From contig JBFMCP010000012.1 of the NCBI GenBank assembly GCA_040754455.1, positions 27,268 to 69,214 on the forward strand: DNA of 41,947 nucleotides. Direction: 5' to 3'. A program made the position numbers. This document shows positions 30,001 to 36,000 of this stretch, piece after piece. Positions within the stretch are counted from its first letter, which is position 1. Every line of letters starts with the position of its first letter. This stretch comes from Nitrospirota bacterium (lineage in GTDB: Bacteria > Nitrospirota > Thermodesulfovibrionia > Thermodesulfovibrionales > Dissulfurispiraceae).

Positions 30001-33000
30001 ATGGACCCGACTCAGCAGAAGATCATGATGCTCATGCCGGTGGTCTTCACCTTCATGTTCCTGACCTTCCCTTCGGGCCTCGTGCTCTACTGGCTGGTGA
30101 ACAATGTGCTGAGTATCGCCCAGCAGTGGTACATGAACAAAAAACTTGTAAAACAGCCAGCATAAATAATCTTATCGCGGAGAGTTCCTCTTAAGAGCTC
30201 TCCGCGGTGCTTGGATAGTCTGTCCATGGATTACCTCGACGACACGATCGCAGCCATATCGACGCCGATGGGCGAGGGCGGCATCGGTATTGTGCGCTTG
30301 AGCGGCAGAGATGCCGTCGCCATTGCAGATGCTGTGTTTGTCTCTCCCAAAGGGAAGAAACTTTCCGGAGCAAAGTCCCACACGCTCACCTATGGGGTTG
30401 TCATCGACCCCGCTACGGGAAGGAAGATCGACGAAGTCCTCGTTGCAGTCATGAGGGCGCCGCATACCTATACCAGAGAGGACGTGGTCGAAATCAACTG
30501 TCATGGCGGCATCCTTCCGCTCAAAACAACGCTCCAGTTGCTGCTGCACCAGGGAGCGCGGCTTGCCGGACCGGGCGAGTTTACCAGGAGGGCCTTTCTC
30601 AACGGAAGGATCGATCTCTCCCAGGCTGAGGCGGTGATTGACGTGATACGGGCAAAGACCGATCAGGCTGAACGGTTGGCCTTCCAGCAGCTCGAAGGAA
30701 GACTTTCGAAGAGGATGACAGAGCTGCAAGCTACGATCACCGGGTTCTGTGCCCATATCGAAGCCTATATCGATTTTCCCGAGGAAGAGATCGAGGCCGC
30801 AACAAAGGACGATATCATCGGTTCTTTGCGCACCACGACAGCAGAGCTCCATAAGCTCTCAAACGGCTATGAGGAAGGAAAATTCTTCAGAGAGGGTGTT
30901 TCTGCGGCAATCGTCGGAAAACCCAATGTCGGCAAATCATCGCTGCTCAATGCATTGCTCGAGAAGGACAGGGCTATTGTCACCGACCTGCCGGGCACGA
31001 CGAGGGACATCATCGAAGACTACCTGAATATCAATGGCCTGCCGCTGCGCATTATGGATACTGCAGGGATCAGGGAGACGCACAACCTTGCCGAGATGGA
31101 GGGAGTGAAGCGGAGCCTCAAGGCAATCGATGGAGCCGACCTCATCATCGCTGTTCTCGATGCGAGCAGGCCGCTGGATGCGGCGGACAGGGAATTGATC
31201 GAAAGAATAAAGAATAAAAAGAGCGTTGTGGTTATCAACAAGATCGACCGGGAAACTCCGGGGTTCGGAAGTGTCGTTCCCGGGGACGGTCTCCAGACTG
31301 CTCCCGTCAAAGTTTCTGCAGTAACAGGGCATGGAATCGATGAATTGAAAAACGCTATCTATTCCCTCTGTATTGCTCCCGACAGCCCTCTTGACCATGA
31401 AGACCTCCTCATCACCAACATGCGGCATAAACATGCCATCGACAGCGCCATCGAATCATTAAAAAGAGCAGAGGAATCACTCAGCAATAACGAGCCGCTC
31501 GAAGTGACCGCCCTTTTTCTTCGTGAAGCGCTCAACCATTTGGGAGCGATCATCGGCGTTGTGACCACCGACGATATCCTGAACAGGATCTTCAGCGAAT
31601 TCTGCATAGGAAAATAAAACTGCCCTCATATCCTTTTCGGATGTTGAAAAGAAGAGGGCAGGAATTTTCCTGCCCTCTTCTTTTCTGCCTATTGGAAGTT
31701 TCGCGCTATTTTTTCAGAGGCGGCGCCGGTTTTGCCGGACCGTTTACCGGGGGATGCGAGGGGGGCAGCGGACCGGAAGGGGGTATGGGAGAGAGGTTCA
31801 GCTTTGAGACTGCGTCCTTGTTGATATCGACTTTATATTTCTTCTTAAGGCCTTCCATGAACTTATCGAAGCTCGCCTTCTGCTTCTCGGCGACGAGCCG
31901 CTGATGGATCATGCCTTTCACCTTTTCGAACTCGACCTGTGTGCCCTTGAGGTCAATCACTTTGAGGATGTGGAGGCCGTCTTTCAGCCTCAACGGCATG
32001 CTTACCTCTCCCTTTTTCAGCCTGAACACCGCGTCTTCGAGCTCAGGAGAAAGCTCTCCCTTTTTGAAGGTGCCGAGATGGCCGCCTGCTTTCGCCGTAT
32101 TCGCATCCGTGGACATTTCGGCAGCGATCTTTCCGAAATCCTCGCCGGCCTTGAGGCGGTCATAGACCTTCTTCGCATCATCCTCTGACTTCACCACGAT
32201 CTGGCTGATCTTCACCTGGCTGCTCAGGATAAAATCTTCCTTGTGGGTATCGTAGAAGTTTTTTATATCCGCATCGGTTATTTTGGCGCCCGACTCTATT
32301 TCCTTTTCGAGGAGCTGATTGATGAGGGTGATCTTCTTGAATTCTTCGACTCTCCTCTGGAACTCCTTGTCCTTGTCCAGGCCTCTCTTTTTGGCCTCGA
32401 TATAGAGCATCTCTTTCTTGGTCAGCTCATCAACGAACCGAGCCGCTCCTTCTGGGCCCATGAAAAACTGCTTCGCCATGTCGGGGAGTGCATTCATCTC
32501 CGCCTGCACGTCCTCTTTGGTGATCTTGACGCTATCTACCTTGGCGACATAGCCGCCCGTTGAACCGCCCTGTGAGCAGGAAGCCACAAAGACGAGGGCA
32601 ATAAGCAATGTTAAAACTCTCTTCATGCCGTGTTCTCCTTTTGCATTATTAATTTATCACTGTAACATATTTAAAAAGCAAAAGTAAAAAAGCGGAATCA
32701 CCATTCCCTGCTGTAATTTTTAAGGCATTCCTGCCTCTCCCCGGCGGTTATCACTGTCCGTTGCCGGGATGCGGTATAATGAAAGAAAACGGGAAAAAGG
32801 GAAGTTTACCGCATAGGCCTGCGGCAGAGCGGAGTAGAAATGCTTTGCATTCACCCTCGTATCCCACCGGAAACCAATCACCAATGAAAAACGTCATTGT
32901 CGGCATGAGCGGAGGCGTGGATTCCTCAATCACTGCCTTGCTTCTCAAGGAACAGGGCTATGAGGTTGAGGGGGTAAGCTTTGTCCTCTATGAGATGAGG

Positions 33001-36000
33001 CTGAAAAAAACTTCTTCCCACGCTCCCTCGTGATGCACTCTTGAGGCTCTGGAAGATGCCAAAAAGACTGCGGAGAGTATCGGTATCAGGCATACCATGG
33101 TGAACCTGAGGGACGAGTTTGTCAGCACGGTGATCGAACCGTTCATTCATGCCTATGCAAAAGGCATTACCCCGAATCCCTGCATCCTCTGCAACAAGAA
33201 CATCAAGTTTCCCTATCTTCTGAAGATCGCTCATGAACGGGGCGCCGATTATATTGCCACAGGACACTATGCACGCGTGGAACATTGTAGCCCGGAGGCA
33301 CAGAACCGGAAGGCTTCCGAGCTTCCGCACTTCCGCACTTCCGTGCTCAAAAAAGGAATAGATCTCAAAAAGGACCAGTCCTATGTTCTTTACGTCCTTA
33401 CACCTGAACTGCTGGATCGGCTACTGCTCCCTCTCGGCGAAAAGAGGAAGGAGGAGGTCCGGCAGATGGCACGGGAGAGGAACCTCTCTGCTGCCCGGAG
33501 GCCGGAGAGCCAGGAGATATGCTTCATCGAGGACCGGTATTACTTCAGATTCGTCGAGGAGCTGACCGGAGAGACCAAGGGGCCGATGATCGATATCGAA
33601 ACAGGAAAGACCCTTGGTCAGCATAGGGGAATCCATCTCTATACTCCCGGACAGCGGAAGCGTCTGGGAGTGGCGACAGGAAAGCCTCTCTACGTTGTGA
33701 GAATCGATGCAAAAAGCAATACCGTTTATGTGGGGCCTCGCGAAGCAGCTCTGGCGCGTGAGTTTAGCGTCGATGAGGTTAACTGGCTGATCCCTCCGCC
33801 CACCGGGACGCAGGTTTTCCGTGCTATGGTGAAGATCCGGTCAACGATGAGGGATGAGCCTGCAACGCTCCATGTCCTTGACCACAACAGGGTAAAGGTC
33901 GTCTATGATGAGCCGCAGTGGGCACCGGCGCCGGGCCAGGCCGCTGTATTTTATGAGGGAGACGTGGTTATCGGCGGCGGTGTGATACAGTGATATTTTT
34001 GAATTTTTTATGGTATTTTAGAGGATATCGTAATTTTTCAGGGGATGGACAATATGACAGGGAAGATTGTTTCGATAAATATCAGTGAGAAGAAGGGCGT
34101 CAGGAAAACGCCCGTTCAGGAGGCTGTTATCAACGAAAATCAGGGCATCGAGGGAGATGCTCACGCTTCGTCGGAGTGGCACAGGCAAGTGAGCCTCCTG
34201 GCGCTGGAAAGCGTAAAAAAAATGCAGGCGATGGGCCTCGATGTGAAGCCCGGCGACTTTGCGGAGAACATTACTACCGAAGGTCTTGATCTCCTTGCGT
34301 TGCCGGTCGGGACGAGGATGCGCATCGGCAGAGACGTTATCGGTGAGGTAAGTCAGATCGGCAAAGAGTGCCATAGCCGGTGCGCCATTTACTACCAGGC
34401 AGGAGATTGCGTCATGCCCAAGGAGGGGATATTCATAAGAATCCTCAAGGGCGGGAAGATCAAAGTCGGCGACGCCATAGATATCTCCCTTAGAAAATAG
34501 CCATAACGAGAGCTGCCGTGAAGCTTCGTGATGATTTATGTTGAGGATGCATGATAACAGTTGCTGTACTTACCTTGAGTGATAAAGGCTCCCGTGGGGA
34601 GCGGACGGATGCAAGCGGTCCCGCGATCGCCGAGATGCTCAAGGGCCTTGCCGAAGTAAAATATTACGATGTCCTGCCTGATGAGCGGGAACTGATCCGG
34701 GATAAACTCATGTCGTATGTCGGCAAGGTTGATCTCGTCTTCACAACGGGCGGCACAGGACTCTCGCCGCGTGACGTTACTCCCGAGGCGACACGCGATG
34801 TTATCGAGCGTGAGATTCCCGGCATTGCCGAGGCGATGAGGATGGAGGGCCTGAAAAAGACGAATCGGTCGATGCTCTCCCGCGCGGTGGCAGGAGTGCG
34901 GGGGCAGACTCTGATTATCAATCTGCCCGGCAGCCCGAAGGCGGTCAAGGAGAACCTCGAGGTCGTCCTCGATGTTCTTCCCCATGCGGTAGAAAAGATC
35001 AAAGGAGATCCGACAGAGTGTGCAAGATAAGTGAGAAGTGGGAAATAAGAAGTAAGAACCTGACGGATAAAAGTATTTCTCTCACTTCTTACTTCTCACT
35101 TTTTACCTCTTACTTTTTCAGGGAGTGTGCGAGATGAAAGATGTATCGTTTCCATTGGCATTTCTGGCGGGGGTGTTGTCATTTCTCTCTCCCTGCGTGT
35201 TGCCGCTGGTGCCTGCGTATGTTTCGTTCATAACGGGATTGTCTATCGATGAGCTGAAATCACGGCCGAAGATCTCGAAGACCATGGGCAATACCATCGC
35301 CTTCATTTTCGGTTTCTCGACGATCTTTATCGCCCTGGGTGCGTCATCCTCTCTGATCGGCGGCCTCTTCCTTAAATACCAGGAATATCTGCGCATCGGC
35401 GGCGGCATCCTGACGATCATCTTCGGACTCTTTATCGCGGGATTCATAAAAATGGACTTCCTCATGAGGGAGCGCAGGTTCCATATCAGCGAAGGGCCCG
35501 CCGGATATGTGGGCGCCTTCCTTATCGGCATGAGCTTTGCCGCGGGTTGGACCCCCTGCATCGGACCGATCCTCGGTACGATTCTGATCTACGCGAGCTC
35601 CCAGGCGTCGGCTGCCTACGGGCTCAAGCTCCTTTCGGTCTATTCACTGGGGCTTGCGATTCCTTTCATCCTGGCGACGCTCGCCATCAATGCGTTCTTT
35701 ACGTATACACGGAGAATCCATAAATTCATGCGGGTGATCATGGTTGTAAGCGGCCTCATCCTGATTCTCTTCGGGATCATGCTCCTGACCAACAAGATGG
35801 GACAGCTGGCGGCATTGTTTCCCGATCTTGGTATAAAATTCTGAGGAGCTATGAAAGAAAGGTACGACTTTAACGAAATAGAGACGACGTGGCAGCGCTA
35901 CTGGGCCGGGCGGCAGCTCGACAAGACCGAGACCGATCCGTCCAAAGAGAAATTCTATTGTCTCGAAATGTTCCCGTATCCTTCGGGGAAGATCCATATG

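Follow-up and report, generated by a model that had tools for sequence, protein, structure and literature searches.

The closest described system to the gene analysed here is the C-type MnmA of Thermus thermophilus, a tRNA U34 2-thiolase that depends on a [4Fe-4S] cluster (Shigi et al. 2020, PMC7025502). As characterised for this enzyme, the C-type is defined by the motifs CC-CxxC-C, which correspond to a cysteine dyad, C105 and C108 in the NPCxxCN motif, and a third cysteine, C200; the protein also contains a PP-loop. In the in vitro data given for mutants of the dyad, C55A and C55A/C56A are as active as the wild type, C56A is 1.7-fold more active, and the iron content and the UV-visible spectra show no change in the CC mutants (PMC7025502). 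The in vitro activity of these mutants thus lends no biochemical support to a catalytic role of the CC column so far. The D-type MnmA of Escherichia coli (PDB 2DER/2DET/2DEU) and the Bacillus-like 9HLN and 9HLV share the fold and the reaction with the protein described below; a literature search for a publication on 9HLN and 9HLV returned none. The D-type has a DxxC motif and one cysteine in the CC region.

Several selenoprotein families, namely SelD, rhodanese-like, DsrE-like, HesB-like and YeeE/YedE proteins, use selenocysteine (Sec) in place of a nucleophilic cysteine for the handling of sulfane sulfur or selenium (PMC13188914). They would resemble our protein in this respect, whereas their folds are unrelated to that of MnmA. 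A SECIS element within the coding region would likewise be common to our gene and the bacterial selenoproteins listed in that review. Table 1 of the review, published in 2026, contains 119 families, and neither PP-loop ATP pyrophosphatases nor tRNA-modifying enzymes are among them. MnmA is thus absent from the table, in line with the initial annotation, which had described it as a family not listed among selenoproteins. Full-text literature searches for a Sec-containing MnmA found no paper.

The locus is located in a window of 41,947 nucleotides from a member of the Dissulfurispiraceae (Nitrospirota; assembly GCA_040754455.1, contig JBFMCP010000012.1), and all positions refer to this whole stretch of DNA. 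We consider it likely, with a probability of about 0.8, that the locus represents a single gene, that it encodes a C-type, [4Fe-4S]-dependent tRNA 2-thiouridine(34) synthase (MnmA), and that its UGA at codon 50 is decoded as Sec. The initial annotation had proposed that this MnmA is a selenoprotein, and the proposal is supported by the alignment of the UGA with a cysteine, a complete Sec machinery, a conserved hairpin at the right distance from the UGA, and the lack of a second mnmA in the genome.

The mnmA gene (32884..33993, plus strand) consists of 369 codons and a stop. It was previously described as one open reading frame that is called as two genes, and both statements hold: the frame starts with ATG at 32884, contains one in-frame TGA and ends with TGA at 33991-33993, and reading with translation table 11 gives a head of 49 codons and a 298-aa ORF at 33097-33993. 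The 369-aa read-through product matches NF001138 over residues 3-368 with 399.4 bits (cut-off 284), which reproduces the earlier score, and TIGR00420 with 350.3 bits (cut-off 236.95), the two equivalog models together spanning residues 2-368. In this product, the HUP/PP-loop domain (PF03054, residues 2-216) is followed by a PRC-barrel (PF20259, 223-284) and a C-terminal beta-barrel (PF20258, 292-368); the three-domain architecture and the equivalog model are shared with the T. thermophilus enzyme. In whole-length comparisons, the protein scores 236 bits against the D-type MnmA of E. coli and 220-226 bits against 9HLN and 9HLV, and the single D-type cysteine in the CC region aligns with U50 in one of the two alignments and with C51 in the other. 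The AF2 model has a pLDDT of 85 and a pTM of 0.83, with unreliable loops at residues 43-48 and 210-216 (pLDDT below 50).

The residues expected for catalysis and cluster binding are all present, and each is invariant in 21 sequences from the family. The ATP pyrophosphatase motif of the PP-loop, S9-G-G-V-D-S14, is encoded at 32908..32925 (plus strand). Three [4Fe-4S] ligands are predicted: C100 and C103 in C100-I-L-C103 of the NPCILCN motif (33181..33192, plus strand) are homologous to C105 and C108 of T. thermophilus, and C213 in QEICF (33520..33522, plus strand) to C200 (PMC7025502). With Sec counted as a cysteine analogue at U50-C51, the protein contains the CC-CxxC-C motifs by which the C-type is defined (PMC7025502). 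By analogy with the T. thermophilus enzyme, it would bind a [4Fe-4S] cluster. It may also form s2U34 in tRNA Glu, Gln and Lys, as suggested by homology and by the nearby mnmE upstream (30211..31617, plus strand; PF12631, PF10396, PF01926), whose product is the partner of MnmA in the xm5s2U34 pathway.

Our protein differs from the C-type MnmA of T. thermophilus in that the first cysteine of the CC motif is encoded by a UGA (33031..33033, plus strand), here read as Sec, in the context HAPS-U-CTLEALEDA. A match to mnmA was obtained in 61 of 68 genomes from the family; four of the 61 contain one TGA and 57 contain none, as the initial annotation had stated. The carriers are the source genome, G000, and G058 in genus g1, and G052 and G053 in genus g14. 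Also as described before, the TGA is at the identical codon in all four, within the shared motif HAP(S/T)-U-CTLEALEDA. The corresponding column had been reported to hold CC in 10 of 10 Cys forms; in our larger set, CC was found in 27 of the 28 Cys-form loci that were read, with a single cysteine in the remaining one (L038). The cysteine following the UGA, C51, is invariant among the 21 family sequences. TGA is a stop elsewhere in the genome, including at the end of mnmA itself. Contigs from three other studies span the site and show no difference at 33031-33033, so the TGA is not an assembly error.

The four Sec forms constitute one clade (support 100/98) that is nested among the Cys forms. 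The Sec form probably arose once from a Cys form within the Sec-using Dissulfurispiraceae and was then maintained by selection. The sample of Sec-form DNA comprises four species genomes from two genera and a single origin. Similar low dN/dS ratios had been reported for both sides of the TGA, and we obtained 0.085 upstream and 0.094 downstream for the comparison of G000 with G058. Across the Sec clade, synonymous sites are saturated (pS 0.63-0.81), with an omega of 0.07-0.13 for either flank. None of the four genes contains another stop or a frameshift over 357-423 codons. These observations bear on the explanation that the TGA arose by nonsense mutation, or by a sequencing or assembly mistake, and that the gene is dead. 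An artefact of this kind does exist. One match outside the family was found in a Chloracidobacterium MAG (L119/L168), where a TGA is placed at the very same codon; this MAG lacks selA, its matches to selB and tRNA-Sec are below the cut-offs, and the gene is frameshifted. We therefore rejected it as an artefact, and its position in a MAG without Sec machinery indicates that artefacts can look alike. A dead gene in the Dissulfurispiraceae is nevertheless close to refuted by the persistence of the same TGA in four genomes with saturated synonymous sites and an omega of about 0.1 on both flanks, by the contigs of the three other studies, and by the presence of a single mnmA match in the source genome. 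Two further searches were made beyond the family. A generic-pattern search for TGA-containing mnmA returned at least 120 loci, with two mnmA genes among the matches listed; a pattern search of metagenome contigs returned one match, which was a chance match in a repeat.

Purifying selection on both flanks is also relevant for the idea that the UGA terminates translation, which then resumes downstream at M72, and that a 49-aa PP-loop peptide cooperates with a 298-aa body. Exactly these two products are predicted by gene callers, and similar N-truncated products are contained in the protein database. However, the split would remove residues 50-71, a segment under purifying selection, and with it the invariant C51 as well as helix 53-66 of the HUP fold. 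Furthermore, Met72 is not conserved, being a leucine in G053 and G052, and the conserved hairpin behind the UGA would be left without a purpose. A pair of cooperating fragments is thus highly improbable.

The SECIS-like hairpin is located at 33045..33060 (plus strand) and is formed by GGCUCU (33045-33050), a GGA loop (33051-33053) and AGAUGCC (33054-33060), in which U33057 is bulged. The hairpin GGCUCU-GGA-AGA(U/C)GCC was previously reported to be kept in all four Sec forms at 13 nt from the UGA. Its conservation holds in spite of the saturated synonymous sites, with six pairs that do not vary among the four sequences and the bulge as the only variable base; the spacer is 11 nt (33034-33044) rather than 13. 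The GGA triloop starts at nucleotide 21, counted from the U of the UGA. Such a hairpin was found in four of four Sec forms and in none of the 28 Cys forms, and by chance behind 3.2% of 118,742 TGA triplets genome-wide. The residues after the UGA are TLEALEDA here compared to SIEAINDA in Cys-form relatives, and the coding stretch here forms the hairpin as well. In the segment E-A-L-E-D-A, five of six codons are identical in all four Sec genes, compared to 35 of 196 conserved-residue codons across the gene, and the segment ranks best for codon identity among 26 six-codon windows.

Triloop hairpins with a loop start at nucleotides 21-27 are also present after the UGA in fdhA, mopB2, mvhD, selD1 and selD2, five known selenoprotein genes of the source genome. 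The mnmA hairpin resembles them: the apex in fdhA, for example, is GGCUCU-GGC-AGAG, and the loop in mvhD is GGA. The hairpin of 6 bp plus a bulge has an energy of about -5 kcal/mol alone and -11.9 kcal/mol with a lower stem. No covariation was found among the four sequences because all pairs are invariant. The 60-nt window behind the UGA folds no better than shuffled sequences (z = -0.57), and only the local hairpin, not the whole 60-nt fold, is meaningful. Bacterial SECIS elements feature a stem-loop that directly follows the UGA and bears a G in its apical loop, and we regard the hairpin as a putative SelB site. A custom scan of the same genome for SECIS elements and ORFs gave 209 candidates, among which the coding score gave no separation.

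The Sec machinery in the source genome comprises selA (626 bits), selB (376 bits), tRNA-SeC(tca) and two copies of selD, both of which contain a UGA themselves. In G058, G052 and G053, selA and selB are likewise above the cut-off. For tRNA-Sec, the matches in G000, G058 and G052 reach 68-69 bits, and that in G053 is borderline, at 47 bits. A 95-nt selC*-type tRNA-Cys with the anticodon GCA was observed near selD1 in the source genome. Cysteine can be inserted at UGA by selC* tRNAs whose anticodon is UCA, according to the description of this class in PMC5389517, which raises the alternative that the UGA is recoded to cysteine, or to another standard residue, through a selC* tRNA-Cys and SelB or through near-cognate read-through. 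The anticodon GCA implies that the tRNA in the source genome reads UGC/UGU and not UGA. This genome also has a normal tRNA-Sec(UCA), selA and two selD genes, and the use of UGA for cysteine would have no evident benefit over the cysteine codon present in 57 relatives. We therefore consider recoding to a standard residue improbable. A link to 2-selenouridine through SelU/MnmH was dropped, as TIGR03167 was not found in the source genome, which is 100% complete by markers.

If the UGA is decoded as Sec, SelB with Sec-tRNA-Sec(UCA) would bind the hairpin at 33045-33060, and Sec would be delivered once the ribosome reaches 33031. The product would contain a vicinal Sec50-Cys51 pair, compared to Cys-Cys in other C-type MnmAs. 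By homology, U34 would be adenylated at the PP-loop in an ATP-dependent step, and the sulfur would be donated by a sulfide on the free iron of the cluster coordinated by C100, C103 and C213. The U-C pair is predicted to lie where a flexible loop passes into helix 53-66, and Sec50 could there attack a donor persulfide and Cys51 could resolve the Se-S adduct, yielding a sulfide for the cluster and a selenenylsulfide. Mammalian thioredoxin reductase contains a vicinal Cys-Sec redox centre in the motif GCUG, which can form an eight-membered selenenylsulfide ring. Adjacent cysteine and Sec residues and the selenenylsulfide chemistry proposed for U50-C51 suggest a functional analogy between the two proteins, although they are not homologous, the order is U-C rather than C-U, and the pair is located in an internal loop rather than in a C-terminal tail.

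That the U-C pair is the redox-active site through which sulfane sulfur enters has, in our view, about one chance in three. A candidate donor is encoded directly downstream of mnmA by a gene for a 151-aa MOSC-domain protein (34045..34500, plus strand; PF03473). In 18 of the 32 loci compared in the family, mnmA is directly followed by a MOSC gene, and the residues C109, C113 and C122 of the protein are invariant; gene order suggests that it may act as a sulfur carrier for MnmA. Alternatively, Sec may be inserted without taking part in a sulfur relay, and the U-C pair could gate or shield the oxygen-sensitive cluster, as a redox switch or a protective site, or provide a removable fourth ligand for the free iron. 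An inhibitory or gating role fits the T. thermophilus mutants (PMC7025502), which stay active and in the case of C56A become 1.7-fold more so, better than an obligatory relay does. On the other hand, the unchanged iron content and UV-visible spectra of these mutants argue against such a role, and the in vitro assays used sulfide or a desulfurase under reducing conditions, which can bypass a relay. We regard a role outside the relay as possible, if rather unlikely. Returning to the sulfur relay, its strongest form would make the CC pair the true catalytic site in vivo: the vicinal selenol/thiol would accept sulfane sulfur from the persulfide of a donor protein, possibly the downstream MOSC protein, and feed the [4Fe-4S] cluster reductively. 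Wobble thiolation of tRNA in these bacteria would then be selenium-dependent, and the dispensability in vitro an artefact of chemical sulfide. This proposal is speculative, and we consider it doubtful.

In nature, the exchange of Sec and cysteine at one position reliably marks cysteines that are redox-active and catalytic. Two motifs define the Fe-S type MnmA, and one of them is the CC motif, which the sole mutagenesis study called dispensable in vitro. That a lineage bears the cost of Sec at exactly codon 50 argues for the importance of this site in the cell, and singles out residue 50 for study in vivo and with donors of persulfide instead of sulfide. Automatic annotation yields two fragments for the sole mnmA in each of these genomes, and the same splitting has probably occurred in further metagenome assemblies. 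If the UGA is decoded as Sec, a tRNA-modifying PP-loop enzyme would join the selenoprotein families, and translation fidelity, through s2U34, would be selenium-dependent in these sulfur-cycling Nitrospirota.

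The gene for the tRNA 2-thiouridine synthase MnmA starts with an ATG at position 32884 of the window (+ strand), contains an in-frame TGA at codon 50 (33031-33033) and ends with a TGA at 33991-33993. Under translation table 11, the frame is broken into a 49-codon head and an ORF of 298 amino acids at 33097-33993. When the TGA is read through, the product of 369 amino acids matches the MnmA equivalog NF001138 with 399.4 bits over residues 3-368 (cut-off 284 bits) and TIGR00420 with 350.3 bits, and all three MnmA Pfam domains are found, which confirms the initial annotation of a single 369-residue ORF with an in-frame TGA at codon 50. 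The product contains the PP-loop SGGVDS, the motifs NPC100ILC103N and QEIC213F, and the sequence HAPS-U-CTLEALEDA around the in-frame codon (U50). The C-type MnmA of Shigi et al. is characterized by the pattern CC-CxxC-C (PMC7025502). Taken together, these motifs identify the protein as a C-type MnmA, and the first cysteine of its CC pair is replaced by UGA. On all computable criteria, the gene is both a member of the C-type MnmA family and a bacterial selenoprotein gene.

A match to mnmA was identified in 61 of 68 genomes from the same family, four of which contain exactly one TGA inside the gene: the source genome (G000) and G058 in genus g1, and G052 and G053 in genus g14. No internal TGA was present in the remaining 57. 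The source genome has one mnmA match and thus no Cys-type back-up copy. Among the 32 genes extracted, the TGA is located at the identical codon in all four Sec forms, within the motif HAP(S/T)-U-CTLEALEDA, and both the count of four and the shared codon claimed previously were reproduced. The proposed alignment of the TGA with the first cysteine of a CC pair applies to 27 of the 28 relatives with a cysteine codon (Cys forms), while the last one has a single cysteine at this site. C51, C100, C103, and C213 are all invariant in an alignment of 21 sequences. In the maximum-likelihood phylogeny, the four Sec forms represent one clade (support 100/98) that is nested among the Cys forms, indicating one change from Cys to Sec.

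Synonymous sites are saturated within the Sec clade (pS 0.63-0.81), and omega is 0.07-0.13 both for the 49 codons upstream of the TGA and for the approximately 305 codons downstream of it, consistent with the earlier suggestion of purifying selection on both sides. A dead gene would not leave both halves of mnmA open and constrained. Furthermore, contigs from three other studies agree with the assembly at 33031-33033. Those of runs X2 and X3 cover 32800-34050 and show four and three differences, respectively, all of them elsewhere, and run X6 covers 32800-33060.

A putative SECIS hairpin, GGCUCU-GGA-AGA(U/C)GCC, is located at 33045-33060 (+). The previously described hairpin is thus present in all four Sec forms, but it begins 11 nt rather than 13 nt past the UGA. 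Six pairs were recovered by RNAalifold in all four sequences, with the bulged base as the sole variable position. There was no covariation among these four sequences, and the pairs therefore prove nothing by themselves. The support for the hairpin comes from synonymous-site conservation, not from the pairing pattern. The four Sec genes use the same codon at only 35 of 196 conserved residues, but at five of the six in the E-A-L-E-D-A stretch, which is the top value of 26 comparable windows (probability about 0.001 by a binomial estimate). A hairpin with six or more base pairs, no more than one bulge and a G-first triloop starting at nt 21-29 is present in 4/4 Sec forms versus 0/28 Cys forms, and it occurs behind 3.2% of the 118,742 TGA triplets in the source genome.

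A triloop hairpin also follows the UGA in all five known selenoprotein genes examined in the source genome, and the distance from the U to the loop start is 21-27 nt. The five genes are fdhA (C17:1967-5116; AGCGGCUCU-GGC-AGAGUCGCU), a second molybdopterin oxidoreductase (C42:4867-5631; loop GUC), mvhD (C3:53426-53794; UUACCU-GGA-AGGUAA), and the two selD genes, selD1 (C21:48405-49331; loop UUC) and selD2 (C37:23899-24813; loop GUC). The mnmA hairpin resembles those of the known genes, but falls at the weak end of their range. The triloop hairpins look like a compact SECIS style that is specific to the lineage. Another 209 TGA sites in this genome are flanked by open frames and followed by a hairpin with a G-first triloop at nt 21-29, and its selenoproteome may be large.

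The source genome encodes SelB (376 bits), SelA (626 bits), a tRNA-Sec with the anticodon UCA, and two SelD proteins that each have their own UGA within a U-x-x-K motif. Matches to selA and selB above the cut-offs were also found in G058, G052, and G053, and the tRNA-Sec scored 68-69 bits in G000, G058, and G052, with a borderline score of 47 bits in G053. Since selA is present in all five of the closest Cys-form genomes, Sec in MnmA represents a specific innovation within a Sec-using family. A reassignment of TGA can be dismissed for the source genome, as mnmA itself terminates in TGA. We infer that Sec decoding at mnmA is of the ordinary bacterial type. Outside the window, approximately 5 kb from selD1 (C21, about 54195-54289, - strand), there is a 95-nt tRNA that matches the tRNA-Sec model with 58 bits and has an 8-bp acceptor stem, a long variable arm, U73, and a GCA (Cys) anticodon; it fits the selC* tRNA-Cys class as described by Mukai et al. 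(PMC5389517). A similar second match (58.8 bits) was seen in G052.

A clade-specific DNA pattern searched against 185,579 species genomes, with the query's own or near records possibly left out, identified only G052 and G053, and the sole match in a metagenome contig was a chance match inside a repeat. A generic C-type pattern gave three matches, all in mnmA: G053, G052, and a Chloracidobacterium MAG (G433, locus L168, position 1301) in which the equivalent CC codon is TGA (SR-U-CSLDDVYDARRVAE). However, mnmA of this MAG is frameshifted upstream of the TGA, and profile searches found no selA and only matches below the cut-offs for selB and tRNA-Sec. The MAG was therefore rejected as support, and its TGA most likely reflects a pseudogene or an error in long-read assembly. 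Among the 150 matches listed for a phylum sample of 401 genomes, with 244 more outside the listing, G000 and G058 alone had a TGA in mnmA. Of the best 120 matches to the 298-residue tail in a collection of 5.8 billion proteins, 11 are N-truncated products that begin with Met at positions 64-76, just downstream of the TGA site, and a quick FastTree phylogeny places eight of these with the Sec forms. Judging from the protein sequences, gene callers have probably split additional Sec-type genes here. Nine N-truncated proteins with a Met start just past the CC position are 285-334 residues long: P0052, P0084, P0059, P0061, P0077, P0088, and P0113, which group with the Sec forms in the quick tree, and P0057 and P0070, which form a separate pair.

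The claim that MnmA is not listed among selenoprotein families agrees with a 2026 review of prokaryotic selenoproteins, in which Table 1 contains 119 families and subfamilies but not MnmA, PF03054, or TIGR00420 (PMC13188914). A full-text literature search, judged by titles and abstracts, identified no paper on a Sec-containing MnmA. We consider it likely, with a probability of about 0.8, that this MnmA is a genuine, hitherto unlisted member of the selenoprotein families.

Thiolation by MnmA of T. thermophilus depends on a [4Fe-4S] cluster bound by C105, C108, and C200, and the CC pair (C55, C56) shows high conservation among the C-type enzymes (PMC7025502). The C55A and C55A/C56A variants had wild-type activity in vitro, while C56A was 1.7-fold more active, and the authors consider the pair dispensable and leave the C56A effect without explanation (PMC7025502). 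Later papers, as excerpted, restate the motif and assign no function to it. In the AF2 model of the protein studied here (pLDDT 85), U50-C51 is placed at the end of a loop, just before the helix 53-66. Residues 43-48 of the loop have pLDDT values below 50, and the same uncertainty applies to the C213 loop. Because Sec is costly and organisms normally retain it only at nucleophilic or redox sites, the U50 site probably matters in vivo. The mechanism that we tentatively prefer, at odds well short of even, is that U50-C51 acts as a vicinal selenol/thiol relay. In this relay, sulfane sulfur would be accepted from a persulfidated protein and handed on, as sulfide, to the cluster's free iron; the U50-C51 selenenylsulfide left behind would be reduced again. 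A redox role in gating or protection has about the same chance of being correct. SelU/MnmH was not found in the source genome, and MnmA thus does not supply the established pathway to 2-selenouridine.

The gene mnmE (30211-31617) is located upstream of mnmA, and a gene for a MOSC-domain protein of 151 amino acids follows mnmA (34045-34500, +). The MOSC gene is the immediate downstream neighbour of mnmA in 18 of the 32 family loci whose flanks were covered, and its product is more conserved than MnmA across these loci (74-86% identity), with invariant C109, C113, and C122 (KECHxRCxIY..GDCVMPKEG). Gene order alone suggests that it may be a candidate sulfur donor or carrier for MnmA. Downstream of the MOSC gene are genes for a MogA/MoaB-like molybdopterin-binding protein (34551-35030, +) and a DsbD-type transmembrane thiol-disulfide transporter (35125-35844, +). 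The main value of this probable Sec-containing MnmA is that it serves as a natural pointer to a function of the CC motif in the Fe-S type of MnmA.
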